Shown: piece by piece, positions 3,702-37,498 of the stretch
How positions within the stretch are numbered: the stretch's first letter is position 1
Layout of the letters: each line of letters starts with the position of its first letter
Program-made: the position numbers and the translations under genes
The notes under the pieces: model-generated
Told to the model about the DNA's origin: nothing
Seen by the model: only the letters and a program-made list of their open reading frames with translations
Database searches by the model: none
Assembly (NCBI GenBank): GCA_034722415.1
Contig: JAYENY010000001.1
Coordinates: forward strand, 1 to 53,888
Direction: 5' to 3'
Length of the DNA stretch: 53,888 bases
Source of the DNA: Patescibacteria group bacterium
GTDB taxonomy: Bacteria; Patescibacteriota; Minisyncoccia; Minisyncoccales; PEYH01

Positions 3702-3723
3702 TATTCCTCTCTATAATCAACTA

Positions 3724-5454
3724 TTACCCAGCAGTTGAAGTTGTGCGAATAACTTCTTCTATTGAAATTTCTCCTCTCAACATTTTTAAAACAGCATCCT
3801 GCCTTATGCTAATCATGCCTTGTCGTTTTGCTTCTTCTGCAATTCTTTTCTCTGTTGGTTCTGCTAAAATTATCTCTCCTAAATCTCTATTCATTTCTAA
3901 TACCTCGAATAAACCAATTCTTCCAGAATATCCACCCCCTCCACACTGACTACATCCGACTGCTTCCCAAATAACTAAATCTTCCCCTATATTATAATCT
4001 GCCCTAGCTTCAGGCGACATAGCATCTAATTCTGTTTTAATTAATTCTCTGGTTCTGACGCTAGGCCTTACTTTTTTGCGACAATGAGGACAAAGCTTTC
4101 TTGCTAGTCGTTGAGCAATAATAACATTAACTGTGGATGGTAAAAGAAATGGCTTTACTTCGAGATCAATCATTCTAGGAATCGCTCCTAAGGCATTGTT
4201 CGTATGAACAGTGGAAAGCACGATATGACCTGTAAGAGAGGCGTGAGTAGCCAAATCAGCTGTTTCTGAGTCTCTGATCTCACCAACCATGATAATATCC
4301 GGATCTTGTCTTAAAACATGCCTAAGCCCAGTAGCAAAGCTATATCCAATCTCTGGTTTTACCTGAGATTGACTTACCCCTCCTATAAAATATTCCACTG
4401 GATCTTCTAGTGTTACAATGTTTACTCCTTCTTTGTTAAGAGAGTCTAGTACTGTATATAAAGTGGTTGTTTTACCAGATCCAGTTGGGCCTGTAACTAA
4501 AATCATTCCAAATGGCTTTGCTGATGCCCTTTTAATAATTTCTAGATTTCTCCCTTCTAACCCGAGCTTATCATAAGTAACCAGCCTTTGGTCTGCATTT
4601 AAAACCCTCATCACTACCTTCTCTCCTAGTGTGGTAGGAAAGGTTGAAACCCTGAAATCGATATCTTGGCCATCTATTGTAATAGAAAATCTTCCATCTT
4701 GAGGAATGCGAGTCTCGTCAATTTTTAATTTAGAAATAATTTTAATCCTAGCTACAATAGAAGGATGAACTTCAGTGGGGAGTATTAAGCTAGAATGCAA
4801 AATTCCGTCTAAACGAAACCTTACTCTGGTTTCTTTCTTCAATGGCTCAATATGGATATCAGAGGCTTGTCCTTCCACTGCATGCTTTAAAATAACAGCT
4901 ACTGTTTTGCTGATTGGAGCATCGCCTCTTTTTTGAACGATCTCTGAAGTACTTTTCGGAGTTGCCTCCTTTTCTCCGGGTTGAAGCTGTTGTTCTAGCT
5001 CTTCTAACGCAACCTTAACTTCTTTTCCTAGTGTTTGATATTGTTTTAAAAATGCTTGAAAATGACTCGGCGTAATTAAACTAACTCTGTAATTAAAATT
5101 TCTTTGACGAGCTAAAAAATTTAACGCTTCTTGGGCCTTAAGATCTTCTGGATAAATCATTCCTACTTCCAACATATTTTCTTTCAGCTCTATAGGAATC
5201 ATCTTGTAATGCTCAACAGAATCCTTGGGAATAAATTCTAAAACTCCTACAGCGACTTCCTTAGGAAGAGATTCTTTAAGTGGAATATTTAGGCTTTCAC
5301 TTTTTAGTTTAAATAATTCTTTCTCTGGAAGAAGATCTTTTTCTAAAATAAGCTCTTCTAGGGTTTTCCCTGAGCTCTTAATTTCCTTCTTTAAAGACTG
5401 GATTGCCTTCTTATCAATAACTTTTGCCTTTGATAGCTCATTAATGAAGGTCAT
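3724..5454 (-). CDS. pilB: Type IV pilus assembly ATPase PilB (GspE family)
   Basis: 576 aa. T2SSE N-domain, Walker A GPTGSGKTT, IMVGEIRD and TVHTNNA. Tetracysteine motif CPHC...CSQCGGGGY. Confidence 0.9.
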   Translation of the reverse strand: MTFINELSKAKVIDKKAIQSLKKEIKSSGKTLEELILEKDLLPEKELFKLKSESLNIPLKESLPKEVAVGVLEFIPKDSVEHYKMIPIELKENMLEVGMIYPEDLKAQEALNFLARQRNFNYRVSLITPSHFQAFLKQYQTLGKEVKVALEELEQQLQPGEKEATPKSTSEIVQKRGDAPISKTVAVILKHAVEGQASDIHIEPLKKETRVRFRLDGILHSSLILPTEVHPSIVARIKIISKLKIDETRIPQDGRFSITIDGQDIDFRVSTFPTTLGEKVVMRVLNADQRLVTYDKLGLEGRNLEIIKRASAKPFGMILVTGPTGSGKTTTLYTVLDSLNKEGVNIVTLEDPVEYFIGGVSQSQVKPEIGYSFATGLRHVLRQDPDIIMVGEIRDSETADLATHASLTGHIVLSTVHTNNALGAIPRMIDLEVKPFLLPSTVNVIIAQRLARKLCPHCRKKVRPSVRTRELIKTELDAMSPEARADYNIGEDLVIWEAVGCSQCGGGGYSGRIGLFEVLEMNRDLGEIILAEPTEKRIAEEAKRQGMISIRQDAVLKMLRGEISIEEVIRTTSTAG

Positions 5455-5519
5455 TTTTCGCTAATATAATTACGTTTAATTGTTTATTGTTTGAAAGCTA
5501 TATATCTCTAAAAATAATA

Positions 5520-5566
5520 CCCCTTAGTCGCCCTGTCAAAAACGGGAATAAATTGCGACAATGGGG
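5520..5566 (-). terminator. Nested imperfect stem-loop with a U-rich tail between the pilMNO-small gene block and pilB (attenuator/terminator candidate)
   Basis: cccc(5520-23)/gggg(5563-66) and gtcgc(5527-31)/gcgac(5555-59) pair. On the minus strand the structure is followed by TATTATTTTT. Confidence 0.3.
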
Positions 5567-5581
5567 CAACAAAACGATCTA

Positions 5582-5905
5582 TTATTCTTCGGGTAAGGTA
5601 GAAGTACTGGTGGTTGAAAGATCCACATAAGGAACAAAAGGATCTTTCCTTCCAAAATTTTCTTGAAAAGGAAAAATTGGACTAAAAAATTCTAATTCAT
5701 ATAATATTTGATTTTCAATTTCCTTAAAGTCTATTTTGATTTTTTCTTCCTTTCTCTCTAAAAAATTTGGTTCTATGGTTGGAATCTCTTCTTCCTTGTT
5801 ACGAAAAACCTTAAACCAAAGAAAGAAAAATGCCAATATCAAAATAGCTACTAAGGCTACTAAATAAATTTCTCTTTTTTTCTTTTCGTAAAATAATATG
5901 GCCAT
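5582..5905 (-). CDS. Small single-pass membrane protein, PilP-like position, with a C-terminal DPF motif
   Basis: 107 aa with an N-terminal TM (LVALVAILILAFFFLWF) and GRKDPFVPY near the C-terminus. Sits immediately after the PilO-like gene. Confidence 0.45.
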   Translation of the reverse strand: MAILFYEKKKREIYLVALVAILILAFFFLWFKVFRNKEEEIPTIEPNFLERKEEKIKIDFKEIENQILYELEFFSPIFPFQENFGRKDPFVPYVDLSTTSTSTLPEE

Positions 5906-5916
5906 AACTTAATTTA

Positions 5917-6450
5917 TCAATAAGAATAAACCTTTAAAATAACATCAAAAAATATGGGCTCGTTTTCTTCTGTGGGCATAGAAAATTCTGAATGAATAAC
6001 ATTTATTAATCGAGAACTTCTTTCTAGAACATAAAGAAAATTCTTAAAAGCAACATACGAGCCAGAAAGTTGTAATCTCAGAGAATACTCTTTAAACCTT
6101 TCTTTTCTCCCCTCTCTTGAGAGAGATATTTCCTGCCAGCTCACGTCTAATAAACTCATTCCAGTTTGATCTGCTGTTGATTCTTTCAAAAAATTCAACA
6201 AAGAAGGAATATCAGGATCAGCTGGTAATGCGCTATTAATTTTGGTGACTAAATCTCTTTTCTCCTCAAGGCTTCTCTCTATTGAAAATAATAACTGTGC
6301 ATATTTGTTTTGATTTTCTAGTTCTATATTTTTTTGACGAAGCTGACTTTGCAAATCATTCAATTCTTCATATTTTGGTTTCAATAAAAACAGTCCTAAA
6401 ATAATAGAAATTGTTACGCTTATAGCAATGATTATGATAGAATATTTCAT
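5917..6450 (-). CDS. pilO: PilO-like pilus alignment protein
   Basis: 177 aa with an N-terminal TM, a coiled coil and a C-terminal SGSYVAFKNFLYVLERSSRLINV segment typical of PilO. 4-nt overlap with the upstream pilN-like gene. Confidence 0.65.
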   Translation of the reverse strand: MKYSIIIIAISVTISIILGLFLLKPKYEELNDLQSQLRQKNIELENQNKYAQLLFSIERSLEEKRDLVTKINSALPADPDIPSLLNFLKESTADQTGMSLLDVSWQEISLSREGRKERFKEYSLRLQLSGSYVAFKNFLYVLERSSRLINVIHSEFSMPTEENEPIFFDVILKVYSY

Positions 6451-6986
6451 CTTGAATCTTTTTCGTCTGTTTTATCTGACGGTAAATAAATTTGGATAAA
6501 AAACTGAATTTCACCTCCTTCTAATTTAACGCTTTCTAGTTCGGCGTCCTCGATGAATCGATCTTTTTCAAAGGCTAAAATCTGCTGACCCAAGCTAACA
6601 AAATCATTAGAAATACCTCCTAATTTTGCCTGAGAATTATTCATATCTAACTCTAGAGAGGTGAAATAAACATTAGGATGAACAAAAACCTCTAGAAAGC
6701 TGAAAAAACTTGAAAGCTTTTTTCGATTCTCTAATAGACCAGCTATATCATCAATTTTCGCTTTAAAAGTTAAAATATCTTGCTCTACATCTTTATAGCG
6801 TTGGCTTTGGCCTGCAGAAATTTCTTGCCTAACCTCGCCTAAAAGAATTTCTGTATTATTAAACTTGTTATTAGTGATTAAATAAAGAAAAATGACAATG
6901 AATACCAAAAGAAAAGAAAACCATGGTAATATTTTCTTTATTCCTGATTCTTTTTTAGCTGATGCTTTGGGAATTACTTGAACCAT
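6447..6986 (-). CDS. pilN: PilN-like pilus alignment protein
   Basis: 179 aa with a short cytoplasmic N-terminus, a single TM and a coiled coil. Lies between pilM and pilO. Confidence 0.6.
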   Translation of the reverse strand: MVQVIPKASAKKESGIKKILPWFSFLLVFIVIFLYLITNNKFNNTEILLGEVRQEISAGQSQRYKDVEQDILTFKAKIDDIAGLLENRKKLSSFFSFLEVFVHPNVYFTSLELDMNNSQAKLGGISNDFVSLGQQILAFEKDRFIEDAELESVKLEGGEIQFFIQIYLPSDKTDEKDSR

Positions 6987-6993
6987 AATTAAT

Positions 6994-8052
6994 CTATTTA
7001 TTAAAACCCCGCAGAGCCATGCCTACAGCTATTGTAAACCCTGACCCAAGTTTTTTCAATGTTTCATCTAGCGTTGGAGGATATGCAATTCCTAAAAAGG
7101 GATTAGCTATTTCTACAGGTAAATTAAGCTCTGCGGATAAATAGTCAGAAAACCCTATAAGAGTTGCTCCGTTCCCAGCAAGAATAACTTTCCCTGCCCT
7201 CTCCTTGTCTTCTAAGTATATTTCATCAAAAATACTCTTTATTTTTTCTAAAATTGCTGTTGCTATGGGCATTGTAATTTCTTGAATAACTGGTTTTTTA
7301 TCAGTAACCCCAAATATCCTTTTAATCGTCTCTGCTTTTTTTGTATCAACCTGAAGTTTTTTTGAGATAGCATCTGTAAAATTTTCTCCAGAAACATCAA
7401 AGCTATAAGAGACTTTCAAAATTCCTTGCGCCACTATATTAATAGTGGTGCTCCTTTCTCCTATATCAACTAAACATACTACATTGCTCTTATCTTGATA
7501 TTTTACTAACGCCCTAACAAGAGCAAAAACTTCTGCTTCCAAAGCAACAACTTTCAATCCTACTGAAAGAGCTATTTTTTGATATTGAGCAATAAGATCA
7601 TTCGGTACAGCAACTAATAAAACACGCAAGGCTGTTCTACCGTCTTTTGATGGACCGCCTTTTATAAGCTGCCAATCTAATGTAACTTCTGACAATGGTA
7701 GAGGGATACGACGCGGAGCTTCATACTTAACTGCTTCAGGAATTTCTGATTCCGACATGGCTGGCAAATTAAAGGTTGTAAAAAAAGTAGCATAATCAGG
7801 AATAGCGAAGAAAGCATCTTTTGATTTAATGCCTGATTCTTTCAATATACTAGACAAGGCCTCAGAAGCGATTGATTCATTTATACCGAGAGTTCCTTTT
7901 TCTCTGCTCTGGCGTGCTTTTCCCATAAAATAATCAGCACCCAAAATACCATAGTTTGATAATGTTTTCCCTTTATCTTTTCCTAGCTCTACCACCTTAA
8001 TAGAAGAGGTCCCTATATCAATGCCTATAAAATTTTTAGAAAATAATTTCAA
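6994..8052 (-). CDS. pilM: PilM (actin-like ATPase fold pilus assembly protein), TTG start
   Basis: 352 aa. FIGIDIGTSSIKVVEL phosphate-1 motif and DIGERSTTINIV phosphate-2-like motif. Confidence 0.85.
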   Translation of the reverse strand: MKLFSKNFIGIDIGTSSIKVVELGKDKGKTLSNYGILGADYFMGKARQSREKGTLGINESIASEALSSILKESGIKSKDAFFAIPDYATFFTTFNLPAMSESEIPEAVKYEAPRRIPLPLSEVTLDWQLIKGGPSKDGRTALRVLLVAVPNDLIAQYQKIALSVGLKVVALEAEVFALVRALVKYQDKSNVVCLVDIGERSTTINIVAQGILKVSYSFDVSGENFTDAISKKLQVDTKKAETIKRIFGVTDKKPVIQEITMPIATAILEKIKSIFDEIYLEDKERAGKVILAGNGATLIGFSDYLSAELNLPVEIANPFLGIAYPPTLDETLKKLGSGFTIAVGMALRGFNK

Positions 8053-8149: not shown

Positions 8150-8836
8150 GTGGAAAACTCTATGACACAAAAAATCCTCACTCAAATTTTGGATTTCCTT
8201 TGGTCTAAACACTGTCTAAATTGCGGCAAAGAGGGCCAATATTTATGCGATGATTGCATCTCTTTAATTGATATTTCAAGAGAACCTCCATGTTCTGGGT
8301 TTAGATATCTCGACAAGCTCTATTTTCCAACAACTTATGATGAAAAATTAGTCCGAGCTGTTATTTCTCGATACAAATACAGTTATGCAAAGGAACTTTC
8401 TAAAACTTTAGCTAATTTAATTATATCTCATTTCAAATTAATGGACAAATCTCCTCCTTTTTTATCAGAAGATACTGATAACTTCCTAATCTGTGCTGTG
8501 CCCCTTTATAAATCAAAATTAAAACAACGAGGATTTAATCAATCAGAAGAAATTGCTAAACATTTATCAAATTTTCTAAACATTCCCTTCTCTCCTAATC
8601 TCTTAATTAAAACAAAAAAGACGTTGCCTCAAATGTCTCTAAACAAGAACCAAAGATTAAAAAATATATCTAACTGTTTTGAAATTAATCCTGAAAAAAA
8701 GAGTCAAATTATTGATAAAAAGATTCTGCTTATTGACGATGTCTTTACTACTGGCGCCACAATAGGAGAATGCGCTAAAATCCTAAAACAAAACCAGACT
8801 CAATTTGTCTGGGGCATTGTAGTGGCAAGAGATTAG
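8150..8836 (+). CDS. comFC: ComF-family competence protein (ComFC, phosphoribosyltransferase-like)
   Basis: N-terminal Zn-finger CLNCG...CDDC and a C-terminal PRTase motif ILLIDDVFTTGAT. The start may be the ATG at 8162. Confidence 0.85.
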   Translation: MENSMTQKILTQILDFLWSKHCLNCGKEGQYLCDDCISLIDISREPPCSGFRYLDKLYFPTTYDEKLVRAVISRYKYSYAKELSKTLANLIISHFKLMDKSPPFLSEDTDNFLICAVPLYKSKLKQRGFNQSEEIAKHLSNFLNIPFSPNLLIKTKKTLPQMSLNKNQRLKNISNCFEINPEKKSQIIDKKILLIDDVFTTGATIGECAKILKQNQTQFVWGIVVARD

Positions 8837-9982: not shown

Positions 9983-12115
9983 ATGCAAATTTCTACTCTT
10001 GTAGGAGAGGTTCCTAAAATCGGACCTATTTACATAAAAAGGTTAAATAAAATAGGGGTCAAAACAATTTATGACCTTTTTTTTCATTTTCCTCATAAAT
10101 ATGATGATTTCTCTAATCTTAAAAAAATCTCTAAAGCAAAAATACATGAACCTGTATGCATTAAAGGAGAAATAGTTTTGATTGAAAATCAAGTAACTTT
10201 TCGAAAAAGATTTTCCATAACAAAAGCTGTTATAAAAGATAATACCGGAACCATGCAAGCCACATGGTTTAATCAGCCATACCTAACTCAATCTCTTAAA
10301 CAGGGAGATACTGTTTGTTTTGCAGGAAAGATAAGCGTAGGGAAAGATGGCTTATACATGTCAAATCCTATCTATGAAAAAACTTGGCCTGGGCACAACC
10401 TAGTTCATACCAATCGGATTGTTCCTGCATACCCAGAAACCAAGGGATTAAGTTCAAAATGGTTAAGATTCATTATTAAGCCATTGCTTGAAGAGTTTAA
10501 AAATCAAATTCCCGAATCTTTGCCAAAAGAATTAATAAAAGATAATAATCTTTTAAGTATCCGAAAAGCAATCTGGGAAATACATTTTCCTAGCTCTGTT
10601 AAAATGATGGAAAAAGCTAAGGAACGATTTGCTTTTGAAGAGCTTTTTATACTTGAACTTTTTGTTTTAAATAAAAAACAAGAATTATCACAACTCGAAA
10701 CAATTCCTATCCCTATAAATCTCGAAACAATTAAAAGATTCGCTAAATCTCTACCGTTTAAATTAACTGATGCCCAAAGAAAATCTTCTTGGCAAATTTT
10801 AAAAGATACAGAACGAGATCAGCCAATGACTCGCCTACTTCAAGGGGATGTTGGTTCTGGAAAAACAGCTGTAGCTACCCTAGCAGCTTTAAATACAATT
10901 AAATCAGGTAGCCAAGTTGCTTTTATGGCTCCAACTGAAATTCTTTCTAGGCAACACTTTCAAACTTTAGCCAATCTTTTGAAAGATTTTAATATTAATA
11001 TTGGATTACTCACCTCTAAAACGGATAAATTTGTTTCTAAAAAATTAAAACGGCAAACTATTGAAATTTCCAGAACAAAGCTTATTGAAAAAACCTTAGA
11101 AGGAGAAATAAATATTCTAATTGGCACCCACTCCTTAATTCAAGATAAAGTTAAATTCCAAAAGCTTGGATTAGTGATAGTTGACGAACAACATCGCTTT
11201 GGAGTAAAACAACGTGCCAAGCTCTGTCAAAAAAAGAATGGCAAATCTAAAAAAATACTGATCCCTCATCTCTTATCTATGACTGCAACCCCGATCCCCC
11301 GAAGCTTAGCTCTAACTGTTTATGGAGATTTAGATTTATCTCTTATTGATGAAATGCCAAAAGGAAAAAGAAAAGTAAAAACTTTAATAGTTCCCCAAAA
11401 AGACAGAAAAAAAACATACGAAGTTATTAAAAAAGAAATTAAAAAGGGAAAACAAATTTTTATCATCTGTCCTAGAATCGAAGAAAAAGAAATTGAAGAT
11501 GGCAAAGAAGATAAGACTGGTTGGTCAGACGTAAAAGCTGTTAAAGAAGAATATAAAAGGTTGTCTGAAAAAATCTTTCCTAAATTTAAGTTAGCAATGC
11601 TCCACGGCAAAATGCCAATTACAGAAAAAGCTCAGATAATGAAAAAGTTCAAGAATGGAAAAATAGATATTTTAGTTTCTACTTCTGTTATTGAGGTAGG
11701 AATCGATATTCCTAACGCCACAGTAATGCTTATTGAAGGAGCAGAAAGATTCGGATTATCACAACTCCATCAATTTAGGGGAAGAATAGGGAGAACAGGA
11801 GAACAGTCTTATTGTTTCCTTTTCTATAACTCCCGTTCAAAAAATGCTATTGCTCGGCTTAAGGCACTTTCTAAAATTGAGAATGGGCTCGAGCTTGCTG
11901 AAAAAGATTTAAAAATTCGCGGCCCAGGTCAATTTTTAGGAACAAAACAATGGGGAATTCCAGACATTGCAATGAATGCGCTAAATGATTTCTCTTTAGT
12001 AGAAACAACAAGGGAAGCGGCTAAAAAAATTCTTTCCTCTGACCCTAAATTAAAAAATCTCCCTGCTTTGAAAAAAAGATTAAGCAAATTTACTAAGACA
12101 ATCCATTTAGAATAA
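9983..12115 (+). CDS. recG: ATP-dependent DNA helicase RecG
   Basis: 710 aa. Wedge/OB N-domain, LTDAQRKS, Walker A GDVGSGKT, DEQHRFG, and helicase C motifs QLHQFRGRIGR. Confidence 0.9.
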   Translation: MQISTLVGEVPKIGPIYIKRLNKIGVKTIYDLFFHFPHKYDDFSNLKKISKAKIHEPVCIKGEIVLIENQVTFRKRFSITKAVIKDNTGTMQATWFNQPYLTQSLKQGDTVCFAGKISVGKDGLYMSNPIYEKTWPGHNLVHTNRIVPAYPETKGLSSKWLRFIIKPLLEEFKNQIPESLPKELIKDNNLLSIRKAIWEIHFPSSVKMMEKAKERFAFEELFILELFVLNKKQELSQLETIPIPINLETIKRFAKSLPFKLTDAQRKSSWQILKDTERDQPMTRLLQGDVGSGKTAVATLAALNTIKSGSQVAFMAPTEILSRQHFQTLANLLKDFNINIGLLTSKTDKFVSKKLKRQTIEISRTKLIEKTLEGEINILIGTHSLIQDKVKFQKLGLVIVDEQHRFGVKQRAKLCQKKNGKSKKILIPHLLSMTATPIPRSLALTVYGDLDLSLIDEMPKGKRKVKTLIVPQKDRKKTYEVIKKEIKKGKQIFIICPRIEEKEIEDGKEDKTGWSDVKAVKEEYKRLSEKIFPKFKLAMLHGKMPITEKAQIMKKFKNGKIDILVSTSVIEVGIDIPNATVMLIEGAERFGLSQLHQFRGRIGRTGEQSYCFLFYNSRSKNAIARLKALSKIENGLELAEKDLKIRGPGQFLGTKQWGIPDIAMNALNDFSLVETTREAAKKILSSDPKLKNLPALKKRLSKFTKTIHLE

Positions 12116-17211: not shown

Positions 17212-19209
17212 ATGCAAATTTCTATAAAAAAATTAGAAAAGATTTGTTTAAAAATTATCCACACTTCTTTTTACTTATTACTTCTGTCTCCGCTTCTAAT
17301 CATTCCTTCTCTCTTCTATCCATTCACTACAGCTAAATCTTTTTGCATGATGGCTCTTACAGAGCTTATTTTTTTTACTTGGTTACTTCTATCAATTTTT
17401 ATTCCGAAATATCGTCCTAAAAAAAATATTCTTCTAATCTCTTTTAGTATCTTTCTGTTAATATTAATATTAGCAACCATATTTGGAGTGGATCCATCGC
17501 GTAGCTTTTGGTCTAATTTTAGAAGGATGAATGGTCTTTTAATGTGGCTCCATTTATTCGCTCTCTTCATTTCTACAAGCTCTGTTTTAAATAAAAAAAA
17601 TATATTAAATTTTATATTTTTTTCAGTATTGGCTGCAACAATCGGATCGCTCTCTTTTTGGATGGACAAAATTGGAATGCCAAGCTTACCTAACTCTAAA
17701 ACTGGTTCTTTTATAGGGAATAGCTCCTTTTTAGCCTCTTATATATTATTTAATCTATATTTTGCTATATACGCTTTATTTTCTTTGAAAAAGAAGAAGG
17801 CTAAACTTCTATTCTTTAATAAATCACATGATCTTTATAATGCTTTTCTCACAATCGGAATACTAATCATGACCTTGGCTCTAATGTTTAGCGACGGCAG
17901 AGCAGCTATAATATCATTCTTTGGTGGCTTACTGTTGCTTTTCTTATTGTGGTGGGCTCTTCGAATAAAAAAGCGGAAACTAAGATTCTTAGGCAAAGTC
18001 ATGTTATCCATCTTCATAATATCCTTCCTAATAATTGTCTCTCTTCTCTTAACTCCTAATAGTAGAATCCAACAAAAATTTGGAGAAGTTGGAGGGAGAG
18101 CTCGTCCAATGATATGGGGAGAAGCATGGAATGCTTTTCTAGAAAGACCAATTCTTGGTTGGGGTCCAGAAACTTTTATTATATCTTCTAATAGATATTT
18201 CGACTCTTCTCTTTTTCTATTGGGAGAATATAACCATGATAGGGCGCACAACATCATCTTTGACAACCTTCTTGACGCAGGAATTTTAGGACTCATTAGC
18301 TATTTATCTATTTTCATTTCTGCATTCTACCTTCTCTGGAGATCATATTCTAAAAAAAGAATAAATTTTTGGGCAACGGCTATTCCAACGGTTCTTATTT
18401 TAGCGCATTTTACAAAAAATCTTAGCGTTTTTGATATGCCAAGCGGATACCTTATGTTAATTTTCCTTTTTCTTTTTATTTCATTAACAACATCGCAGGA
18501 GCCTAAAAACAACAAGGTAGTAATTAGAAATAAAAAAAATCATTTTATTTTCCCTGCCATTTTTTTACTTCTAATAATGTTCGTTTCCAGTTTATATTTT
18601 TTTATACAAAAACCAGCTTCGGCAAACATTGGGGCGGCAAAAGTGTTGCGCTCAAAAAAATATAACAAACAAGCATACAAGCAAGCTCTCAATTCTTCTT
18701 GGATAGGCAAATATCAAATTGGCGTTTGTATTGCTGATTCTATGGTTTCTATGGCTAAAGATAAAAGCCGTGAATTATCGCTTGAGGAAATTAGATTAAT
18801 TGAAAAAACGATGGAGCAAAATATAAGATCTTCTCGTCTTGATTATTATAGCCATCTTTTTTTGGGACAAATTTACAATATCCACGGATTTACTTTTGAA
18901 AAATCTAAATTTAATAATGCGGAAAAAATTCTAAGACAAGCGATTATATTATCTCCTACCCACCCGATTGCTTATTGGGAGTTGGCAAAAACAAAAATTT
19001 ATCTAGGTAAAAATAAAGAAGCTGTTATTTTAGCGAAAAAAGTAATTGATTTAGAACCTGAATTACTTAATGCCCATGTATTTTTAATTAATTTATATAG
19101 AAATATTAGTGAAGACAAGGCCGCAGAACAAGCAATAAAAAAAGCAATTAAAATCATTCCGGATATTGTGACTGAATTAGAAGATTTTATAAATATACAA
19201 GAACTTTAG
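17212..19209 (+). CDS. O-antigen-ligase (Wzy_C)-like polytopic membrane protein fused to C-terminal TPR repeats
   Basis: 665 aa with about 12 TM helices. Periplasmic loop with RAHNIIFDNLLDAGILGL. C-terminal TPR-like helices (AYWELAKTKIYLGKNKEA...). Confidence 0.7.
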   Translation: MQISIKKLEKICLKIIHTSFYLLLLSPLLIIPSLFYPFTTAKSFCMMALTELIFFTWLLLSIFIPKYRPKKNILLISFSIFLLILILATIFGVDPSRSFWSNFRRMNGLLMWLHLFALFISTSSVLNKKNILNFIFFSVLAATIGSLSFWMDKIGMPSLPNSKTGSFIGNSSFLASYILFNLYFAIYALFSLKKKKAKLLFFNKSHDLYNAFLTIGILIMTLALMFSDGRAAIISFFGGLLLLFLLWWALRIKKRKLRFLGKVMLSIFIISFLIIVSLLLTPNSRIQQKFGEVGGRARPMIWGEAWNAFLERPILGWGPETFIISSNRYFDSSLFLLGEYNHDRAHNIIFDNLLDAGILGLISYLSIFISAFYLLWRSYSKKRINFWATAIPTVLILAHFTKNLSVFDMPSGYLMLIFLFLFISLTTSQEPKNNKVVIRNKKNHFIFPAIFLLLIMFVSSLYFFIQKPASANIGAAKVLRSKKYNKQAYKQALNSSWIGKYQIGVCIADSMVSMAKDKSRELSLEEIRLIEKTMEQNIRSSRLDYYSHLFLGQIYNIHGFTFEKSKFNNAEKILRQAIILSPTHPIAYWELAKTKIYLGKNKEAVILAKKVIDLEPELLNAHVFLINLYRNISEDKAAEQAIKKAIKIIPDIVTELEDFINIQEL

Positions 19210-19235
19210 ATTCTTCGCAAAAGCTTAAATAAAAT

Positions 19236-19260
19236 CCCGCAAAAAAGCGGGTTTTTATTT
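19236..19260 (+). terminator. Rho-independent terminator
   Basis: cccgc-aaaaaa-gcggg followed by TTTTTATTT. Confidence 0.65.
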
Positions 19261-19266
19261 CTCGTG

Positions 19267-19348
19267 TGCCCCCGGCAGGAGTTGAACCTGCACCTCTTAC
19301 GAGATATGGTCCTAAACCATACGCGTCTGCCAATTCCGCCACAGGGGC
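19267..19348 (-). tRNA. tRNA-Leu(UAG)
   Basis: Acceptor GCCCCTG/CGGGGGC, anticodon stem TATGG/CCATA with loop TTTAGGA, long variable arm. Confidence 0.85.
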
Positions 19349-19435
19349 ATAATATATAAGGTTAACAAAAAAAATCGTCGCCTTCAAGAGATCTCAAAGG
19401 CGAAGATTTAAAACTTTTCCTTAAATTCGACTGGC

Positions 19436-19789
19436 TTACTTCTTTAAAATCATCAGAACTATAGCCACTAATCCTCTGGCTAGAACTGCTACAGCTAAAC
19501 CAATCAACGCATACATTAACAAATTCCTTGCTGTAGCGATTGTATCTGGTTTCCCTCCACCAGTAACAAACATATACCCAGAAACAATAATCATTAAAGA
19601 AACAACTACTATCAAGAAGCCAAAAAGCCAATTAATTGCTTTTGGAAGTATTGCCATAGCCTCGCTGGCCTTATAGTCTACTGGTTCTTTTGAGTCAACA
19701 GTCCAATCAGCTAACGCTGGCACAACAGGGGCAACGGAAAGCCCAACGATAAAAACTAATCCTAATACTCCAATTAATTTCTTACTCAT
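19436..19789 (-). CDS. Small two-TM TrbC/VirB2-like 'T4SS pilin'-type protein
   Basis: 117 aa. Signal peptide, then INWLFGFLIVVVSLMIIVSGYMFVTGGGKPDTIATARNLLMYALIGLAVAVLARGLV: two hydrophobic helices around a GGG(K/D)P turn. Confidence 0.7.
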   Translation of the reverse strand: MSKKLIGVLGLVFIVGLSVAPVVPALADWTVDSKEPVDYKASEAMAILPKAINWLFGFLIVVVSLMIIVSGYMFVTGGGKPDTIATARNLLMYALIGLAVAVLARGLVAIVLMILKK

Positions 19790-19860
19790 TTTTTTATCTT
19801 TTTATTATCTTTTTATTATCTTTCTAAGACCGACCTTTGATTATTTTTTTGATTATCTTA

Positions 19861-19889
19861 ATTCTATAAAACTTAATAGGAAATAGCAA
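19861..19889 (-). promoter_or_regulatory. Promoter candidate for 19436..19789
   Basis: Minus strand reads TTGCTA (rc 19884-89), a 17-nt spacer, then TAGAAT (rc 19861-66). Confidence 0.4.
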
Positions 19890-20007
19890 ATAAGATATCC
19901 ACAGGCAATTATGAGAGAATGCTTGCGCCTAGAATACCGTAGATTGATTTCAATATCTTACAATTCTCCTCTTTTATGATTTATTATTAAATATTCCCTA
20001 ATCAAAG

Positions 20008-20583
20008 CTATGGTTCAATAATCATCAAAACGACAGCAACCAATCCTCGACTTACTACAGCTATAGCCAATCCGACTAAGGAATAGACTAGCCAACGCCT
20101 TGCTTTAGTAATTCCTTCTGGATTCCCAATTGAAATCATGAAAAGATATCCCGAAAGTATAAGAGTTCCAGTAACTACAACTATTAGAAAACCAAAAATC
20201 CAATCAATAACATTAGGAATCACCATCAATGGATCTGAATTCGCAGGGAAGACGGTCCGCAAGATAGAGACTATTCCCTTAGATATGGCGACAATAGTTA
20301 CTCCAATCAATGCATATGTAATAACCTTTCTTCCTGTGGCTGCTTTTTGAGGATCTCCACCAGAAAGGATAAGATAATAAGCTCCAATTATTATCATTAG
20401 AACAGCCACTATTATAGATATGGGGAAAAGCCAACTTAAAACCCGAGTAAACATTTCATCGAATGTGCTCGAAGCTGATGTTCCTGTCCCCATGGGATTA
20501 AAAAAACTAGCACTACTTGTTGCGATAACGGATGAAGCACTGAGTAATAAAAATATAATTAATAGAAAAATCTTTTTATACAT
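20008..20583 (-). CDS. Tandem-duplicated two-TM pilin-like protein (two TrbC/VirB2-like modules)
   Basis: 191 aa. Module 1 is LSWLFPISIIVAVLMIIIGAYYLILSGGDPQKAATGRKVITYALIGV.... Module 2 is IDWIFGFLIVVVTGTLILSGYLFMISIGNPEGITKARRWLVYSLVGL..., which is very similar to 19436..19789. Confidence 0.7.
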   Translation of the reverse strand: MYKKIFLLIIFLLLSASSVIATSSASFFNPMGTGTSASSTFDEMFTRVLSWLFPISIIVAVLMIIIGAYYLILSGGDPQKAATGRKVITYALIGVTIVAISKGIVSILRTVFPANSDPLMVIPNVIDWIFGFLIVVVTGTLILSGYLFMISIGNPEGITKARRWLVYSLVGLAIAVVSRGLVAVVLMIIEP

Positions 20584-20587
20584 ATAT

Positions 20588-20935
20588 TCAAGAAAAACTT
20601 AAGTCACCCATAAAAAAATAAGTTAAGCTTTTTATTATTAATATTATACCAAAAATTACTGCTGTATATAAGATAATTTTTTTACCCAATATAACATTTG
20701 AAGGATTAGCTCCAGCAAATAACATCGTAAAACCACCCCAAATAATACAAAGCGGTCCAACGATTATTGACATCCAAAAAATAACTCCAACCGCCCTATC
20801 GAATAGTTCCCCAAAAGTAGTAGAAACAATAGGATTTATGTCTTGGGCGCTAGAAAGAATCGGACATAAAAAACTTAAACAAACCAAGAAAAAAAGTATT
20901 TTATAAAATAATATTTTTTTATTCATAAATAACAA
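20588..20935 (-). CDS. Small two-TM pilin-like protein (same family)
   Basis: 115 aa. Signal peptide, then VIFWMSIIVGPLCIIWGGFTMLFAGANPSNVILGKKIILYTAVIFGIILI. Confidence 0.65.
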   Translation of the reverse strand: MLFMNKKILFYKILFFLVCLSFLCPILSSAQDINPIVSTTFGELFDRAVGVIFWMSIIVGPLCIIWGGFTMLFAGANPSNVILGKKIILYTAVIFGIILIIKSLTYFFMGDLSFS

Positions 20936-20951
20936 ATATATAATTCTATAT

Positions 20952-21722
20952 TTATTTCTTCCCTAAAAATATCCAAACTAATTCAATTATTCCTCTCGAA
21001 ACAGCTATCATGGCAAACGCAGCTAATGTCCAAAGTATTATTTGCTTACCCTTGTCTATCTTAGTTGGAACGCCTCCTGAAGTAACCATTGTATAGCTAC
21101 CAATAATAATCATTAAAACTGCAAGATATATAGATGATGTAAATAAAAATATGATTACTCTACGAAGAAACTCAAGGATATTATTATCTAAAAGAGGGTT
21201 GTCATAGCTAGTGGCTATACTGGAGGTTAAGGACTCTATTTGGCAATTACTGTCACACCCATCTCCATTATCCGTGTTTCCATCATCGCACTGCTCTACT
21301 GGCGCCTCCAAAATTCCATTTCCACAAACATTGGGAATAGCGGCTGATACAGTTACTAAAGTCGTTACCGTATCGCATACTCTCGGTGCTCCTATAGTCT
21401 CCTCAATGCAAACCTCAACTGTAATTGTGCGAGCTCCTTCGCTAGCATATGTATGTATAAAAGAAAAATGAAATGTCCCACCAGGATTTGTAAAATCGTT
21501 GGCATTAGAACTCCCTCCGTCTCCAAAACTTATATCAACCCAAGCATAAGGACTCCCAGTAGATGGACCTGCTCCTGTTACAGTGATAGTAGCAGAAGCT
21601 CCAACTGTCGGCGAAGTAGGCGAAACCTCAACTAAAATTCCAAACTGGGCATAAATTGGGACTATTGCCGAAAAAACTAAAAATAAGACAAGCAAAAATA
21701 GAAACTTTTTTCTCATAGCCAT
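20952..21722 (-). CDS. Secreted PKD-like + Cys-rich-repeat protein with a C-terminal two-TM pilin-like module
   Basis: The start is probably MAMRKKFLF (21722) rather than 21776. PKD-like WVDISFGDGG...HTYASEGARTITVEV. CGNGILEAPVEQCDDGNTDNGDGCDSNCQIE resembles the Myxococcus-type cysteine-rich repeat. The C-terminal IIFLFTSSIYLAVLMIIIGSYTMVTSGGVPTKIDKGKQIILWTLAAFAMIAV matches the neighbouring small proteins. Confidence 0.7.
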   Translation of the reverse strand: MAMRKKFLFLLVLFLVFSAIVPIYAQFGILVEVSPTSPTVGASATITVTGAGPSTGSPYAWVDISFGDGGSSNANDFTNPGGTFHFSFIHTYASEGARTITVEVCIEETIGAPRVCDTVTTLVTVSAAIPNVCGNGILEAPVEQCDDGNTDNGDGCDSNCQIESLTSSIATSYDNPLLDNNILEFLRRVIIFLFTSSIYLAVLMIIIGSYTMVTSGGVPTKIDKGKQIILWTLAAFAMIAVSRGIIELVWIFLGKK

Positions 21723-21732
21723 TTGCTGTTTA

Positions 21733-22257
21733 TTATTTTTCAAAAATCGCGGACCAGTGATAGGTATCGGCCTCAAGTTTTTTAACTAATTTCATATCTA
21801 AATTGAGCCGCATTAATTTCTCAATTTCGTCTAAGGATACTCTTCCCTCCTCGGGTCCAAATGGTGAATCTACTTTCCAGTCAACAACTATTATTTTCCC
21901 ATTTACGTTAAGAATTCTTTTCGCTTCCCTAAGTATTTCTTCTCTTTTGGTTGATTGAAATAAAATATTAGTTACCAAAACTAAGTCTAACACACCATCC
22001 CTAAGGGTAGATCCTTTTGGTTCCTCTAAGTCACATTGAATTGTTTTTATATTAGACAACCCCTCTACTTTAGCTTTGCCAAGTAGTGCTGAAAGAGGCT
22101 CTTCTTGAATATCTAAGGCATAAACCATGCCTTTGGGTAAAACTCGTGCCAATTCAATTGTAAATCCGCCTTGTCCACATCCAAACTCAGCAGCATTCCA
22201 ATCCTGCTTTATTCCAAGTTGCTCAATAATTTTTTCTGGATCAAGAAAAGTCACCAT
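21733..22257 (-). CDS. Class I SAM-dependent methyltransferase
   Basis: 174 aa. Motif [16 protein letters not shown] and an acidic loop ALDI. Confidence 0.75.
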
Positions 22258-24721
22258 TTTTTAAACTAATTAAAGAAATTATTTTATCGTCATTACTTAA
22301 TTTCATTGTTCTCACACCTTGAGTTGCTCTGCTAAGAACAGAAATATTTTTAGCTGAAACTCTAATAACCTGCCCTCGTTGAGAAATAATAATTAACTCT
22401 TCGTCGCCTTTTAATATTTTTACTCTTGCGAGATCTCCAGTTTTTTTCGTAAGCTTACAGGTTTTAATTCCACTACCACCTCGGCTTTGTAAGCGATAAT
22501 TAGTTAATTTAGTCCTCTTGCCATAACCTCCTTCAGTTAATACTAAAAGATAATCTTTAGTTTGTTCTTTTTCTATAATCTCCATACCTATTAATTCGTC
22601 ATCTTTTTTTAACCGTACTCCCTTATTCCCAGCTGCGTTTCTTTGCATTGGTCGAATTTCTTTTTCTTTAGTTCTAATTGATTGTCCTGCTTTAGTAACT
22701 AAAATTATTTCAGCTTTTCCAGTAGTTTTTTTAACTGATCGCAGAACATCTCCCTTTTTTAACCTTATAGCAATTAATCCAGAATTCCTTATATTCCTAA
22801 AATCTTCTAAAGCACTTTTTTTAATAGTACCATTCTTAGTGGCCATTACTAAATATTTTATCTGTGCTTTTATATCTTTTTTGCCTAGAGGCAAGACAGC
22901 CAAAACCTTATCTTCTTGGTTAATTTCTAAAAAGTTAACAAGCGCTCTGCCTTTTGACGTTCTGGTTCCTGCTGGCAATTCATAAGTGGGCAAAGCAAAA
23001 ACCTTGCCTGAATCAGTAAAGAAAAGCAATTTATCCAAAGTACTCGCTAAAACAAAATGTTCTACAAAATCATCATCTTGAGTCTTTGTACCAATAATTC
23101 CCTTCCCTCCTCTCTTCTGGGTTTTGTAAGTAGATGGACTAATTCTTTTAATATATCCTTTTTGAGTTAATGTAATCAAAACCTCTTCTTCGGCAACTAA
23201 ATCTTCTTCTGAGATTTGCTCTACTTTCTTAACAAAAACCTTTGTTCTTCTCGCATCTCCAAAACTATCTCTCATTTCTTTTAACTCTTTTTTAACTACT
23301 TTTTTTATCTTAGCTGGACTTCCTATAATAGACATTAACTCTTTGATTTTCTCTCTAACTTCTTTTAATTCATCTTTTATTCTCTGTATTTCTAAACGCG
23401 CTAAAGCAGAAAGTTTTGTTTCCAAAATTGCCTCTGCCTGAATATCTGTTAATTTGAATTTCTTTTTTAAATTTACTCTTGCATCATCTCGATTTTTAGA
23501 TTGTTTAATAATTGCTATTACTTGATCAATTTTAGCAAGACATTTAGCTAATCCTTCCAGAATATGCTCTCTATCTTTAGCCTTTTTTAGCTCATATTTA
23601 CTCCTTCTTAAAACAACCTCTTTGCGATGCTCTAAATAGTAATTCAATACTTCTGGTAAAGATAAAATCTTAGGTTGTATTCCATCAACTAGAGCAAGCA
23701 TATTTAGGTGGAATTTTTTTTGTAAATCAGTAGATTTGTATAAACGATTCAATATCTTTTGAGGAAAGGCTCCTTTTTTAAGATCTAAAACAATTCTTAT
23801 CCCTTCCCTCCCGGATTCATCTCTAGCGTCTTTTATTCCTTTTATTTTCTTTTCTTGAATTAACTTAGCAATTTGAGTAACTAGTGTAGCCTTGTTAACT
23901 TGGTAGGGGATCTCGGTAATAAGAATACTCCATAGATCTCCTTTTTTCTCAACAACATCTGCTTTGCCACGAATTAAAATCGGTCCCTTGCCTTGAGAAT
24001 AGGCAGAGACTATTTCTTTTTGGTTATAGATAATTCCTGCGGTAGGAAAATCTGGGCCTTTAATAAACTGAAATAAATCTTCTGTGGTAGCTTTAGGTTT
24101 GTCGATAAGATATATAGCGGCATCACAAACCTCTGTAAGATTGTGAGGAGGGATACTTGTGGCCATACCAACAGCGATTCCCAATGTTCCATTTAATAAA
24201 AGCTGTGGCAATGGTGATGGCAAAACATTTGGCTCCTTCCTAGTAGTGTCATAATTATCTACAAAATCAACCGTATCTTTATTAATGTCTGTAAGCATTG
24301 CTTGCCCTAGTTTGGATAATTTTGCCTCTGAATACCTCATTGCAGATGCAGGATCTCCGTCTAGGCTTCCAAAATTTCCCTGTCCTTGAATTAGAGGATA
24401 CCTCAATGAAAAATCTTGAGCCATTCTGACTAAAGAATCATAAACCGCCACATCTCCGTGTGGATGATAGCGTCCTAACACGCTTCCTACTACAGTTGCT
24501 GATTTTCTAAATTTACTATTATAATATAATCCATCTTCGCCCATAGCATATAGAATACGCCTATGTACTGGTTTCAATCCATCACGAACATCAGGTAATG
24601 CGCGAGAAACTATTACTGACATTGCATAGTCAATATAGCTCTCTTTCATCTCTTCGCTGATTCCTTTCAGTTTAACATGGCCGATATTATTGTTTTGTTC
24701 GCTCTCTTTATTTTTCTTCAT
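22241..24721 (-). CDS. gyrA: DNA gyrase subunit A
   Basis: 826 aa. [26 protein letters not shown], an active-site Tyr region (AMRYSEAKL) and C-terminal beta-pinwheel repeats. Confidence 0.95.
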
Positions 24722-26888: not shown

Positions 26889-28742
26889 ATGAACAAGGCA
26901 ACCAAAGGTTTAGCAAAAAATTTTTTAGTTATTGTGCTAATTTTTGTATTCGCTTCTGCTATTTTTGCTCTTTTCTCTCCCTTAACTCCTCCTTTAGATA
27001 AAATATCTATCGGTCAATTAGCTCACGAAATTAATCAAGACTCAATAAAAGAATTAGTTATCTCAGGGAATGATATTTTAATCGAATATCAGGATGGTAG
27101 ACAGGTTGAAAGCAGAAAAGAAACTGAAATGGCAATTTCTGAAAGTTTAATTAATTACGGAGTCAACGAAGAAAAACTAAAACAGTTAAATCTAATTATT
27201 CAAGAGGAAAAACAAGGCTGGATGCAAACCGCTTCTATCTTTATAGTAATTCTCCCCTTATTTCTCTTTGGTTGGTTTTTTTGGATGATCAGCAAGCAAG
27301 CTAAAACAGGCGCAATGCAAGCTTTTAATTTTTCTAAAACCAAAGCTCGTCTTTTTGGAGCAGAAGGACACCCTAAATTAAAAGTTAGCTTTAAAGATGT
27401 TGCTGGATTAAGGGAAGCGAAAGAAGAATTAAAAGAAATCGTTGAATTTTTAAAAACTCCTAAAAAATTCCTTGATATGGGAGCAAGAATTCCAAGAGGT
27501 GTTTTACTTTTAGGCCCACCTGGCTGCGGAAAGACACTTTTAGCAAGAGCTGTAGCTGGAGAAAGTAGTGTTCCGTTTTTCTCAATTGCTGGCTCAGAAT
27601 TTATAGAGCTTTTTGTTGGAGTAGGAAGTGGTAGAGTCAGATCTTTATTCCAAGAAGCAAAAAAGCATAAAAAATCTATTATTTTTATTGACGAGCTAGA
27701 CGCTATTGGCAGAACTAGAGGAACGGGCACTGGAGGAGGACACGATGAGAGAGAACAAACCCTGAATCAAATTTTAGTTGAGATGGATGGTTTTGAAAAA
27801 GATTCAAAAACTATAATTATAGCTGCAACTAATAGACCTGATATTCTAGATCCAGCTCTTTTAAGGCCAGGAAGGTTTGACCGCCGAGTTGTTTTAGACC
27901 TACCAAGTATTGAAGATAGAGAGGCAATCTTAAAAATTCACTCTAAAGACAAGCCCCTAGATTCAACGATTAGTCTAAGAGAGGCTGCTGAAAGAACTCC
28001 TGGCTTTTCTGGCGCTGACCTTGCCAACCTTATTAATGAAGCAGCTATTCTAGCTGCGCGAAGAAATAAAAAGACAGTCTCCCAAAAAGAATTGTTAGAA
28101 TCAATTGAAAAAGTTCTTTTGGGACCTGAAAGAAAGAGTTATGTCTTATCAGAGAAAGAGAAAGAGGTATCAGCTTATCATGAAGCTGGACATGCTTTAG
28201 TAGCTTCGTTCTCTGATGATAACGAACTAGTAAGAAAGGTATCAATTGTTTCGAGAGGGATGGCTGCTGGCTATATTCTAAAATCTCCTCGTAAAGAAAA
28301 ACGAATGAAAACTAAGTCAGAATTTTTATCTGATATCGCTACTTTCTTGGGAGGATATTGTGCAGAGGAAATAAAATTTAAAGAAGTAACAACTGGTGCT
28401 AGTAATGATTTAAAACAAGCATCTCGATTGGCAAGAAAATTAGTTAAAGAATTCGGCATGTCTGATAAACTGGGTCCTATTGTATTTGGAGAAAAAAACG
28501 AACTAATGTTTTTAGGAAAAGAATTTAATGAAGAAAAAAATTATTCTGAAAAAATAGCTGAAAAGATAGACCAAGAGGTTGAAAAAATTATAAAAGATGG
28601 CAAAAAGCAAGCAATGAAAATTCTGAAAACAAAAAAACGTTTCTTAGAAAAAATAGCTAAAAGATTAATAGAGAAAGAAACTATCGAAAAAGAAGAATTA
28701 GAGAGATTGATAGGAGGAGGTGCAAAGAAAAAGCGCGCGTAG
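26889..28742 (+). CDS. ftsH: ATP-dependent zinc metalloprotease FtsH
   Basis: 617 aa. Two TMs, Walker A GPPGCGKT, Walker B IIFIDELD, the SRH region and the zinc motif HEAGHAL. Confidence 0.95.
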   Translation: MNKATKGLAKNFLVIVLIFVFASAIFALFSPLTPPLDKISIGQLAHEINQDSIKELVISGNDILIEYQDGRQVESRKETEMAISESLINYGVNEEKLKQLNLIIQEEKQGWMQTASIFIVILPLFLFGWFFWMISKQAKTGAMQAFNFSKTKARLFGAEGHPKLKVSFKDVAGLREAKEELKEIVEFLKTPKKFLDMGARIPRGVLLLGPPGCGKTLLARAVAGESSVPFFSIAGSEFIELFVGVGSGRVRSLFQEAKKHKKSIIFIDELDAIGRTRGTGTGGGHDEREQTLNQILVEMDGFEKDSKTIIIAATNRPDILDPALLRPGRFDRRVVLDLPSIEDREAILKIHSKDKPLDSTISLREAAERTPGFSGADLANLINEAAILAARRNKKTVSQKELLESIEKVLLGPERKSYVLSEKEKEVSAYHEAGHALVASFSDDNELVRKVSIVSRGMAAGYILKSPRKEKRMKTKSEFLSDIATFLGGYCAEEIKFKEVTTGASNDLKQASRLARKLVKEFGMSDKLGPIVFGEKNELMFLGKEFNEEKNYSEKIAEKIDQEVEKIIKDGKKQAMKILKTKKRFLEKIAKRLIEKETIEKEELERLIGGGAKKKRA

Positions 28743-28807
28743 CTCAGCGGTGGAGCATCCGGCTTATATCCGGACGGTCGCAGGTTCGAATCCTGCCGCG
28801 CGCACCA
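28733..28807 (+). tRNA. tRNA-Ile(UAU), CCA encoded
   Basis: Acceptor GCGCGCG/CGCGCGC, D-stem GCTC/GAGC, anticodon stem TCCGG/CCGGA with loop CTTATAT, T-loop TTCGAAT, then ACCA. The first 10 nt overlap the ftsH 3' end, including its stop codon. Confidence 0.8.
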
Positions 28808-36052: not shown

Positions 36053-36355
36053 TTATTCTTGATAAAAAGGGTTAGCATAAGTTTTAAAATCCGCCTCAAA
36101 AAACTTCTGTTTTCGCTGAGCATAATTACTTAGAAAATTTTGATAAAGCTTTTCGTCCAATTCTATCATCTTCACTACTGTTATTGGCTCTTTAGTAACA
36201 ACTAAAAAACCATAATAATAAAAAATGGCGCCTCCTATAAGTAGCATTAAAGAAACAAAAATAATAAAGCTTACAAAAGCCTTTTCTCCCAAAAACCAAA
36301 CTATTTTCTGGGAAATTTTTTTAATTTTTTGAAAATTAATTTTAACTTTGGACAT
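36053..36355 (-). CDS. Small single-pass membrane protein at the end of pilus locus 2 (PilP-like position, C-terminal NPF)
   Basis: 100 aa with a TM (FVSFIIFVSLMLLIGGAIFYYYGFLVV) and a C-terminal YANPFYQE. 14-nt overlap with the PilO-like gene. Confidence 0.45.
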   Translation of the reverse strand: MSKVKINFQKIKKISQKIVWFLGEKAFVSFIIFVSLMLLIGGAIFYYYGFLVVTKEPITVVKMIELDEKLYQNFLSNYAQRKQKFFEADFKTYANPFYQE

Positions 36356-37444: not shown

Positions 37445-37498
37445 AATTTATTTTATCTTATGCTCTCTTTATCAATAAAGAGGGGACATAAAAAATGA

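Follow-up and report, generated by a model that had tools for sequence, protein, structure and literature searches.

The window analysed here is contig JAYENY010000001.1 of the Patescibacteria group bacterium assembly GCA_034722415.1, a complete 53,888-bp contig of a metagenome-assembled genome (MAG) with the locus-tag prefix U9Q96 and a GC content of about 35%. Upon its minus strand lies an array of four pilin-like genes, named A, B, C and D. Judged by sequence, these are VirB2/TrbC-like two-helix pilins of the Pfam family PF18895, and the array is of an already-described kind, the VirB2-like pilin array of Patescibacteria. Probably, A to D supply the pilins for a type IV secretion system (T4SS) of Patescibacteria whose ATPase and channel core is encoded elsewhere in the genome, and which would work by the mechanism proposed below.

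The four open reading frames (ORFs) were found where the original prediction, made from the letters of the window, had placed four same-strand genes sharing a two-helix module. A custom hidden Markov model (HMM) of this module detects exactly five copies of about 75 aa in the window, two of which are in C and the others singly in A, B and D. Each protein opens with a signal peptide, judged by inspection from a K-rich n-region, a hydrophobic core and a small-x-small site, and in each module a G-x-P turn and a K/R-rich loop connect one hydrophobic helix to a second. The turns read GGVP in A, GANP in B, GGDP and IGNP in C, and GGKP in D, with the proline alone invariant. The basic patch that had been described behind a GG(D/K/N/V)P turn stands, as K/R residues follow the turn of every module, but the strict GG does not, since GANP and IGNP occur. 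Structurally, the AlphaFold2 model and the hydropathy of A place its hairpin at residues 178-211 and 217-250 (pLDDT 76-90). The model of C contains two hairpins of moderate confidence (38-72 / 78-111 and 118-150 / 155-189), referred to as C1 and C2 and joined by a linker of about 10 aa, which agrees with the earlier reading that C holds the module twice.

The family PF18895 (T4SS_pilin), named correctly in the original prediction, is matched by all four genes. C reaches 59.9 bits in two stretches, above the gathering cutoff of 26.6 bits, with D at 26.3, B at 19.7 and A at 19.1 bits. The modules of A, B and D are tied to passing members of the family through their orthologues and through the custom HMM (89-115 bits; the B module 89.7-109 bits). 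Among the short pilins of the window and the related arrays, PF18895 is matched by 10/10 and the TrbC/VirB2 family PF04956 by 4/10 (best E 7e-7), and PF04956 has no match at E<=1 to the four proteins of the window. The VirB2/TrbC-like two-helix topology proposed earlier is supported.

Pfam scans of the large ORFs of the window find no VirB4, VirB6, VirB8, VirD4 or PrgI, as had been stated for VirB4, VirB6 and VirD4; these ORFs comprise housekeeping genes and two type IV pilus clusters. In the related assembly CAYYED01, a gyrA-linked array is present on one contig (L013), and KsgA, a PF18895 pilin and a 595-aa P-loop_TraG/AAA_10 ATPase are on a separate contig (L018). A search with this ATPase leads to protein P0306, which is MEA3453213.1, named 'DUF87 domain-containing protein [Patescibacteria group bacterium]', and which scores 381 bits on NCBIfam NF045971 (VirB4-like conjugal transfer ATPase, CD1110 family) against a cutoff of 325. 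Its neighbours are U9Q96_02675, a PrgI family protein (MEA3453211), the TrsD/TraC-like U9Q96_02685 of 212 aa and U9Q96_02695, with the prefix of the window genes. The VirB4 contig is 31.5 kb long and resembles the window in GC content (0.350 vs 0.346) and tetranucleotide usage (r 0.97), and its Logan copy comes from SRR26901924, the same sample as the Logan copy of the window locus. Hence, a T4SS core is encoded in the same MAG as the array, on a different contig. The genome-wide look for VirB4 that the original prediction had put forward as a check therefore ends in a VirB4 with PrgI and TrsD-like neighbours. A T4SS encoded elsewhere is what that prediction had itself named as speaking against its independent fibre or scaffold, and the premise of such a fibre fails.

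The same core is found in relatives. One 130-kb contig carries, in order, KsgA, a 719-aa protein, Band_7, a 136-aa protein, PrgI, a TraC-like protein, VirB4, proteins of 97, 851 and 532 aa, YidC, RnpA, dnaA and dnaN; such an oriC-proximal T4SS arrangement has been published for Paceibacteria. VirB4 conservation within the clade amounts to 70-91%, suggesting that a working system is under strong selection. Separately, large proteins encoded directly 3' of VirB4 (Table 1) open with a weak pilin-like hairpin (16-27 bits on the custom HMM), and have no Pfam or NCBIfam match on record except a sub-cutoff one to NF045849 (20 bits) in the L027 protein.

How the window array relates to those already known can be read from a survey of 3,035 Patescibacteria genomes with PF04956 and PF18895 (Quinonero-Coronel et al. 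2025, PMC12102498). VirB2-like pilins were present there in 1,948 VirB4-containing assemblies and near virB4, that is, with pilin genes within 20 coding sequences on either side, in 1,135, and are thus unlinked in about 42%. The survey counted 441 Patescibacteria arrays of 2-11 pilin genes with a mean identity of 25% and a maximum of 54%, and detected no adhesins (PMC12102498). In the window, no virB4 stands within 20 coding sequences of the array, a linkage that is not required for array membership, and the five modules share 15-50% pairwise identity. Both features fit the survey, which is why we place the array with the already-described kind.

The paralogues are old and distinct. C2 and D share 50% of their amino acids, 61% of their nucleotides and 47% of their third positions. 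The strings WIFGFLIVVVT and WLFGFLIVVVS, on which a likeness of the two had been based, are present, but the modules are not nearly identical and do not reflect a recent duplication. Among the window pilin genes there is no nucleotide repeat longer than 45 nt (73% identity) and no conversion tract. Additionally, 33 modules from six genomes cluster by type and position rather than by genome, forming an A type (always with an ectodomain), a B type (bare or with an ectodomain), C1, D/C2, and an E type that is absent from the window array. Recent duplication or gene conversion between C2 and D is rejected on the nucleotide identity, the lack of repeat tracts and this clustering, and the clustering across genomes together with the fixed gene order indicates that the duplications are ancient and the copies non-redundant. 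Full-length orthologues of C (186-195 aa, 47-60% identity) occur in 9 other clusters. Between relatives, identity reaches 68-93% in the D module and 50-82% in modules of the remaining types.

Gene A presents a folded ectodomain in front of its pilin module. In the 254-aa AlphaFold2 model, a beta-sandwich spans about residues 27-124, and its closest PDB match by Foldseek is the PKD domain 4xed (E 1.4e-4, TM 0.67), followed by CARDB and other Ig-like folds. Since the Pfam PKD model PF00801 reaches 19.3 bits (E 0.0012) under a cutoff of 23.5, the modelled sandwich is best called Ig/PKD-like. A single repeat with 4 Cys and the pattern CGNG...CDDGN..GDGC..C matches DUF4215 PF13948 (31 bits, cutoff 27) and TIGR02232 (40.7 bits, cutoff 20.8), in a part where the AlphaFold2 confidence is low, and a serine/threonine-rich linker ends in YDNPL. 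All six cysteines of A (6/6) fall within the ectodomain, as expected for an extracellular, disulfide-bonded domain. The fusion of A to PKD-like and Cys-rich modules was therefore read correctly; of the domain models suggested for the locus, PF18895 (on C), DUF4215 and TIGR02232 exceed their cutoffs, and PKD and, for the window proteins, TrbC do not. A is a candidate adhesin-bearing minor pilin.

The ectodomains follow a history of their own. The ectodomain of A is nearest to those at the B position of loci L007, L005 and L010 (34-37% identity, E 1e-13 to 1e-18), and its module to first-position, A-type genes (47-53% identity). From these alignments, the ectodomain of A is chimeric relative to its module, and ectodomains have been swapped between module types. 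The B orthologues of L005, L007 and L010 bear a PKD and DUF4215 ectodomain, other A-type genes have unrelated Cys-rich or Pro-rich ectodomains, and the B-position gene of L013 (6215-9952) encodes 1245 aa, in which an N-terminal pilin hairpin is followed by about 1,100 aa with Peptidase_C1 (papain-like), PA14, PKD and other Ig-like domains. Between the window and its closest relative, L011, housekeeping genes are 77-92% and pilin modules 50-70% identical, and the A ectodomain is unalignable. Swapped, and unalignable between close relatives, the ectodomains are candidate host-binding adhesins. Helix 1 is also preceded, at a distance of about 12 residues, by a conserved N-P-[LI] motif, seen in the window (20955-21191) and at the junctions of all fused pilins in L002-L016. 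It stands directly after the signal-peptide site in bare pilins and at the ectodomain/module junction in fused ones (YDNPL in A-types), and could be a module cap or a secondary processing site.

In a wider search at E<=1e-3, a profile built from the five window modules retrieves 26,355 representative proteins. Among the best 148 of these, a ranking that favours multi-module proteins, 115 hold 2-8 modules per chain, and 19 have N-terminal extensions of at least 100 aa with fn3, He_PIG, TIG or NPCBM_assoc domains. Fusions are N-terminal or, as in L013, C-terminal, at ends of the module that are both predicted to lie outside the cell. The family representatives P0143-P0290 include chains with as many as 8 modules in tandem, for example P0144, with 8 stretches in 820 aa. 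Fusions and multi-module chains are thus common among database proteins. Term searches of the searchable literature, the three main papers on these arrays included, gave no mention of ectodomain fusions or tandem chains, and ectodomain-bearing and tandem VirB2-like pilins are possibly undescribed.

The layout of the array is conserved as well. The block gyrA, methyltransferase, A, B, C, (E) and D recurs in another nine distinct loci, in eight of which gyrA and the methyltransferase are confirmed directly upstream, and the four or five pilin genes are flanked by these two on one side and by (Wzy)-HSP20-PrsW-TsaD on the other; L012 is cut after three pilin genes and L017 begins inside the array. 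The gyrA genes of array-bearing loci are 70-91% identical to that of the window, and no T4SS genes were found within 10 kb on either side of the array in the further syntenic loci examined. This gyrA-linked conserved layout is possibly undescribed.

Within the window, the genes are as tightly packed as their suggested co-transcription with gyrA and the methyltransferase implies, for they stand directly behind both, and no terminator is predicted until after D. The gaps in the order methyltransferase-A-B-C-D are about 10, about 25, 4 and 218 nt. A strong hairpin directly behind D is the sole terminator-like one on the minus strand between gyrA and the tRNA-Leu gene, which lies beyond it. The larger spacer before the D-type gene is present in every related locus; in the window it contains a promoter-like match, and an own promoter for D remains a suggestion. 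The TTG starts listed for A (21776) and B (20935) are probably too far upstream, the likely true starts being ATG 21722 or 21716 for A (254 aa in NCBI, 256 aa in Logan) and ATG 20926 for B (112 aa in Logan). The methyltransferase overlaps the gyrA stop by 17 nt, ends 10 nt before A, and has no specific NCBIfam assignment. In L002, L005, L007, L010-L013, L015 and L016, too, it fills the space between gyrA and the array and overlaps or adjoins each of them. It could serve in pilin modification or simply have a housekeeping role.

Table 1. Features of the pilin array, its surroundings and the proteins downstream of VirB4 in related loci
Feature	Position	Strand	Description
Gene A	20952..21722	-	MEA3452747.1; signal peptide, Ig/PKD-like sandwich, one DUF4215/TIGR02232 repeat, S/T linker, A-type hairpin
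Gene B	20588..20926	-	bare B-type pilin: signal peptide, DINPI motif, hairpin
Gene C	20008..20583	-	U9Q96_00135, MEA3452745.1; tandem double pilin: signal peptide, C1-type hairpin, D-like C2 hairpin
Gene D	19436..19789	-	U9Q96_00130, MEA3452744.1; bare D-type pilin, last gene of array
Methyltransferase	21733..22257	-	174 aa, class-I S-adenosylmethionine-dependent (SAM); Pfam Methyltransf_31/11/25
gyrA	22241..24721	-	conserved upstream anchor of syntenic block; 826 aa, no intein
Sigma-70-like promoter match TTGCTA-17-TAGAAT	19861..19889	-	in 218-nt C-D gap; consensus match only
Intrinsic-terminator-like hairpin	19378..19403	-	11-bp stem and T run, directly 3' of D
VirB4-downstream large proteins	L027 4402-6579; L023 12098-14653, 14646-16244; L018 18153-20198		

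Given these features, the following mechanism is proposed. After Sec export and removal of its signal peptide, each pilin would remain as a membrane hairpin whose two ends face the outside and whose short basic loop is cytoplasmic. The PrgI/VirB3-like and TrsD-like proteins and VirB4, together with the large membrane proteins, would then extract the hairpins and polymerise them into a surface filament or stalk, in which the loop would line the lumen and the termini would face outward, as in canonical VirB2/TraA pili. D is likely the major subunit, because it is the last gene and the most conserved, with a promoter-like site and a conserved spacer before it and a terminator after it. C would act as a covalent dimer of C1 and a D-like unit, and B as a minor subunit. 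A would display its Ig/PKD-like and disulfide-rich DUF4215 domains outward as a host-cell-binding adhesin, on the filament or at its tip, with B or E presenting the binding domain in other genomes, and the fast-evolving, exchangeable ectodomain would set host specificity.

A broader proposal, which we hold to be possible and rather doubtful, is that the adhesins and host-specificity determinants so far missing for the Patescibacteria T4SS filament are pilin paralogues with exchangeable folded ectodomains. There might then be four or five fixed subunit types with one or two positions serving as 'cargo slots', and the N-terminal (or C-terminal) slot domains, be they Ig-like, Cys-rich or enzymatic, might be shuffled between paralogues and replaced between close relatives; both elaborations are equally tentative. 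If true, this would be the first case of VirB2-family pilins with natively displayed folded domains, and, with the covalent multi-pilin chains, it would imply an assembly logic unlike that of canonical conjugative pili.

Several points weigh against a T4SS-assembled pilin set. Three of the four proteins, A, B and D, score below the gathering threshold of PF18895 (D by 0.3 bits), and the promoter match before D does not exceed shuffle expectation. Comparison by hhalign of the short array pilins with five plasmid VirB2/TrbC (MPF_T, a mating-pair formation class) sequences gave a non-significant and uninformative probability of 1.1%, and a PDB sequence search with the double-pilin profile returned nothing relevant. 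Foldseek found no significant PDB match for the C model, the conjugative pilus 8dfu of Aeropyrum pernix appearing at rank 46 with E 5.3, but a fold as simple as a helical hairpin does not lend itself to such a search. The array is unlinked to virB4, genome co-occurrence being the sole tie from which functional coupling is drawn, and a MAG is a bin, the two contigs of which could in principle derive from different strains. Additionally, no pilus has been observed for the Patescibacteria T4SS, and its function has been called completely unknown (PMC11665869). Chains of up to 8 modules and enzyme fusions would fit a generic membrane anchor equally well.

An unlikely alternative builds upon the last of these points: the two helices of the PF18895 hairpin would chiefly serve as a membrane anchor or oligomerisation unit that keeps ectodomains (Ig-like, Cys-rich, peptidase, lectin-like) at the cell surface, with the bare copies as a membrane platform and no filament. 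It would account for the diverse ectodomains at either end of the module (fn3, He_PIG, TIG, NPCBM_assoc, Peptidase_C1 with PA14), for the 2-8-hairpin chains in 115 of the best 148 family hits, for the weak pilin-like hairpin that opens the large proteins by VirB4, for the lack of a significant structural or profile match to solved pilins, and for a pilus so far unobserved in the Patescibacteria T4SS. Yet the bare B and D carry no cargo and are the best-conserved members, the four or five types in fixed order resemble the subunits of one assembly, and matches to the TrbC/VirB2 Pfam family recur. In Saccharibacteria, moreover, the arrays are inside the T4SS cluster and essential with it (PMC10633639), which also disfavours a mere anchor.

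Two further explanations fare worse. That the genes form an antigenic or host-range variation cassette, with interchangeable paralogues from recent duplication, is highly improbable; it is an analogy to the VirB2 of Bartonella and Anaplasma, drawn in PMC12102498, and it would suit the low paralogue identity (15-50%) and the wholly different ectodomains of close relatives. However, orthologous types keep a conserved order across genomes whose gyrA is 70-91% identical, nucleotide repeats and conversion tracts are lacking, and the variation sits in the ectodomains rather than in the choice of paralogue. Scarcely credible is the autonomous surface fibre or scaffold, assembled without a T4SS and co-expressed with gyrA and the methyltransferase. 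While the 54-kb window and the 10 kb around the array in the syntenic loci examined lack T4SS genes, and the array follows gyrA and the methyltransferase closely, no terminator being predicted ahead of the end of D, PrgI, a TrsD-like protein and VirB4 are encoded on another contig of the same assembly and likewise in relatives, with VirB4 conserved at 70-91% across the clade. Pilin genes co-occur with VirB4 in 1948 assemblies (PMC12102498), and no VirB4-free mechanism for extracting two-helix pilins from the membrane is known. For MAG contigs in general, the absence of machinery from a window is weak evidence.

The pilin set of an unlinked T4SS, as favoured here, has its closest likeness in the arrays of Ca. 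Southlakia epibionticum ML1 and of Nanosynbacter lyticus TM7x (the 'Sec-secreted array'). With these, A to D share PF18895, a Sec signal peptide, the hairpin, a chromosomal location, tandem divergent paralogues, and a genome with an MPF_FATA-like VirB4, PrgI and TrsD and no relaxase nearby. The six-pilin array of Ca. Southlakia epibionticum ML1 is essential (PMC10633639; PMC12857230). Unlike the arrays inside T4SS clusters, the window array stands behind gyrA, and its T4SS core is on another contig; in relatives of the window genome the core adjoins dnaA and the array is at gyrA. It also differs from the described arrays in having one member with a folded Ig/PKD-like and DUF4215 ectodomain and one covalent double pilin.

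In canonical pilins of the MPF_T and MPF_F classes (VirB2, TrbC, TraM, TraA), two hydrophobic helices are accompanied by a loop that is positively charged and exposed to the lumen (bioRxiv 10.1101/2022.04.28.489814). The window proteins share with them a mature unit of about 65-75 aa, the two hydrophobic helices, the short positive loop and signal-peptidase processing, and PF04956 matches in relatives range from sub-threshold to significant. They are unlike them in the lack of a significant direct profile or structure match, in the monoderm host, and in the lack of linkage to a virB operon. There is also no VirB5 tip adhesin here, a role that the N-terminal ectodomain on a pilin paralogue may fill. 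The pili that canonical pilins form outside the cell usually contain phospholipid, and tandem multi-module chains are not a known feature of these pilins.

The pilin-like protein of Mycoplasma integrative conjugative elements (ICEs; NF045849, Mbov_0395 family) is another small two-helix protein of a monoderm, MPF_FATA-type system. C matches it weakly, at 22.8 bits and far below the cutoff of 40, and the Mycoplasma protein is encoded by a single-copy ICE gene, not a chromosomal array. A tblastn search with D against 72,556 plasmids gave no match, hence no evidence of a plasmid or ICE origin. With the minor and tip pilins of type IV pili and with VirB5, A to D have in common the concept of a specialised binding subunit next to a bare shaft subunit, but the folds and assembly machines are unrelated.

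The window contains two type IV pilus clusters, at 448-8052 (-) and 36342-47421 (-), each with PilB, PilC, PilM, PilN(/O), N_methyl pilins and a response regulator. The former also has a PilT-like ATPase, and the latter a histidine kinase, very large pilins of 333 and 600 aa and a 489-aa protein without a Pfam match. Type IV pilus machinery as the assembler of A to D was rejected, as these proteins have Sec-type signal peptides and hairpins instead of an N_methyl motif; PF07963 (N_methyl) does not match them and does match the true type IV pilins of the window. Adjoining the first cluster, 7-11 kb from the array, are a ComFC-like gene (Pribosyltran and a double zinc ribbon; 8150-8836, +) and recG (9983-12115, +), a neighbourhood kept in L002. 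In the ABY1 class, comF and recG are found near T4SS loci (PMC12102498). About 5 kb from its array, L005 has a gene (4262-5095) of the TraX family (PF05857), to which the F-pilin acetylase belongs; the window has no counterpart of it. The gyrA gene contains an intein in L007 (3605-7681), L010 (3954-7676) and L013 (1463-4432), giving products of 989-1358 aa, and L011 has two LAGLIDADG-like ORFs at 17947-20449. Further along the window, a tRNA-Ile with the anticodon TAT, unusual for bacteria, is located at 28733-28807 (+), directly before tRNA-Val(TAC).

The array bears on how Patescibacteria recognise and exploit their hosts, and their T4SS is essential in the one species tested. The locus described here adds no new kind of system, and what it offers instead are leads. 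One is a pilin operon at gyrA, set apart from the oriC-proximal T4SS core, in a Paceibacteria-like clade (a label taken from the source names of related proteins). Another is that the paralogues are ancient, distinct subunit types and not recent variants. Additionally, the folded, variable ectodomains on particular pilin positions are candidate host-binding determinants, and as such may become markers for predicting host range from metagenomes.

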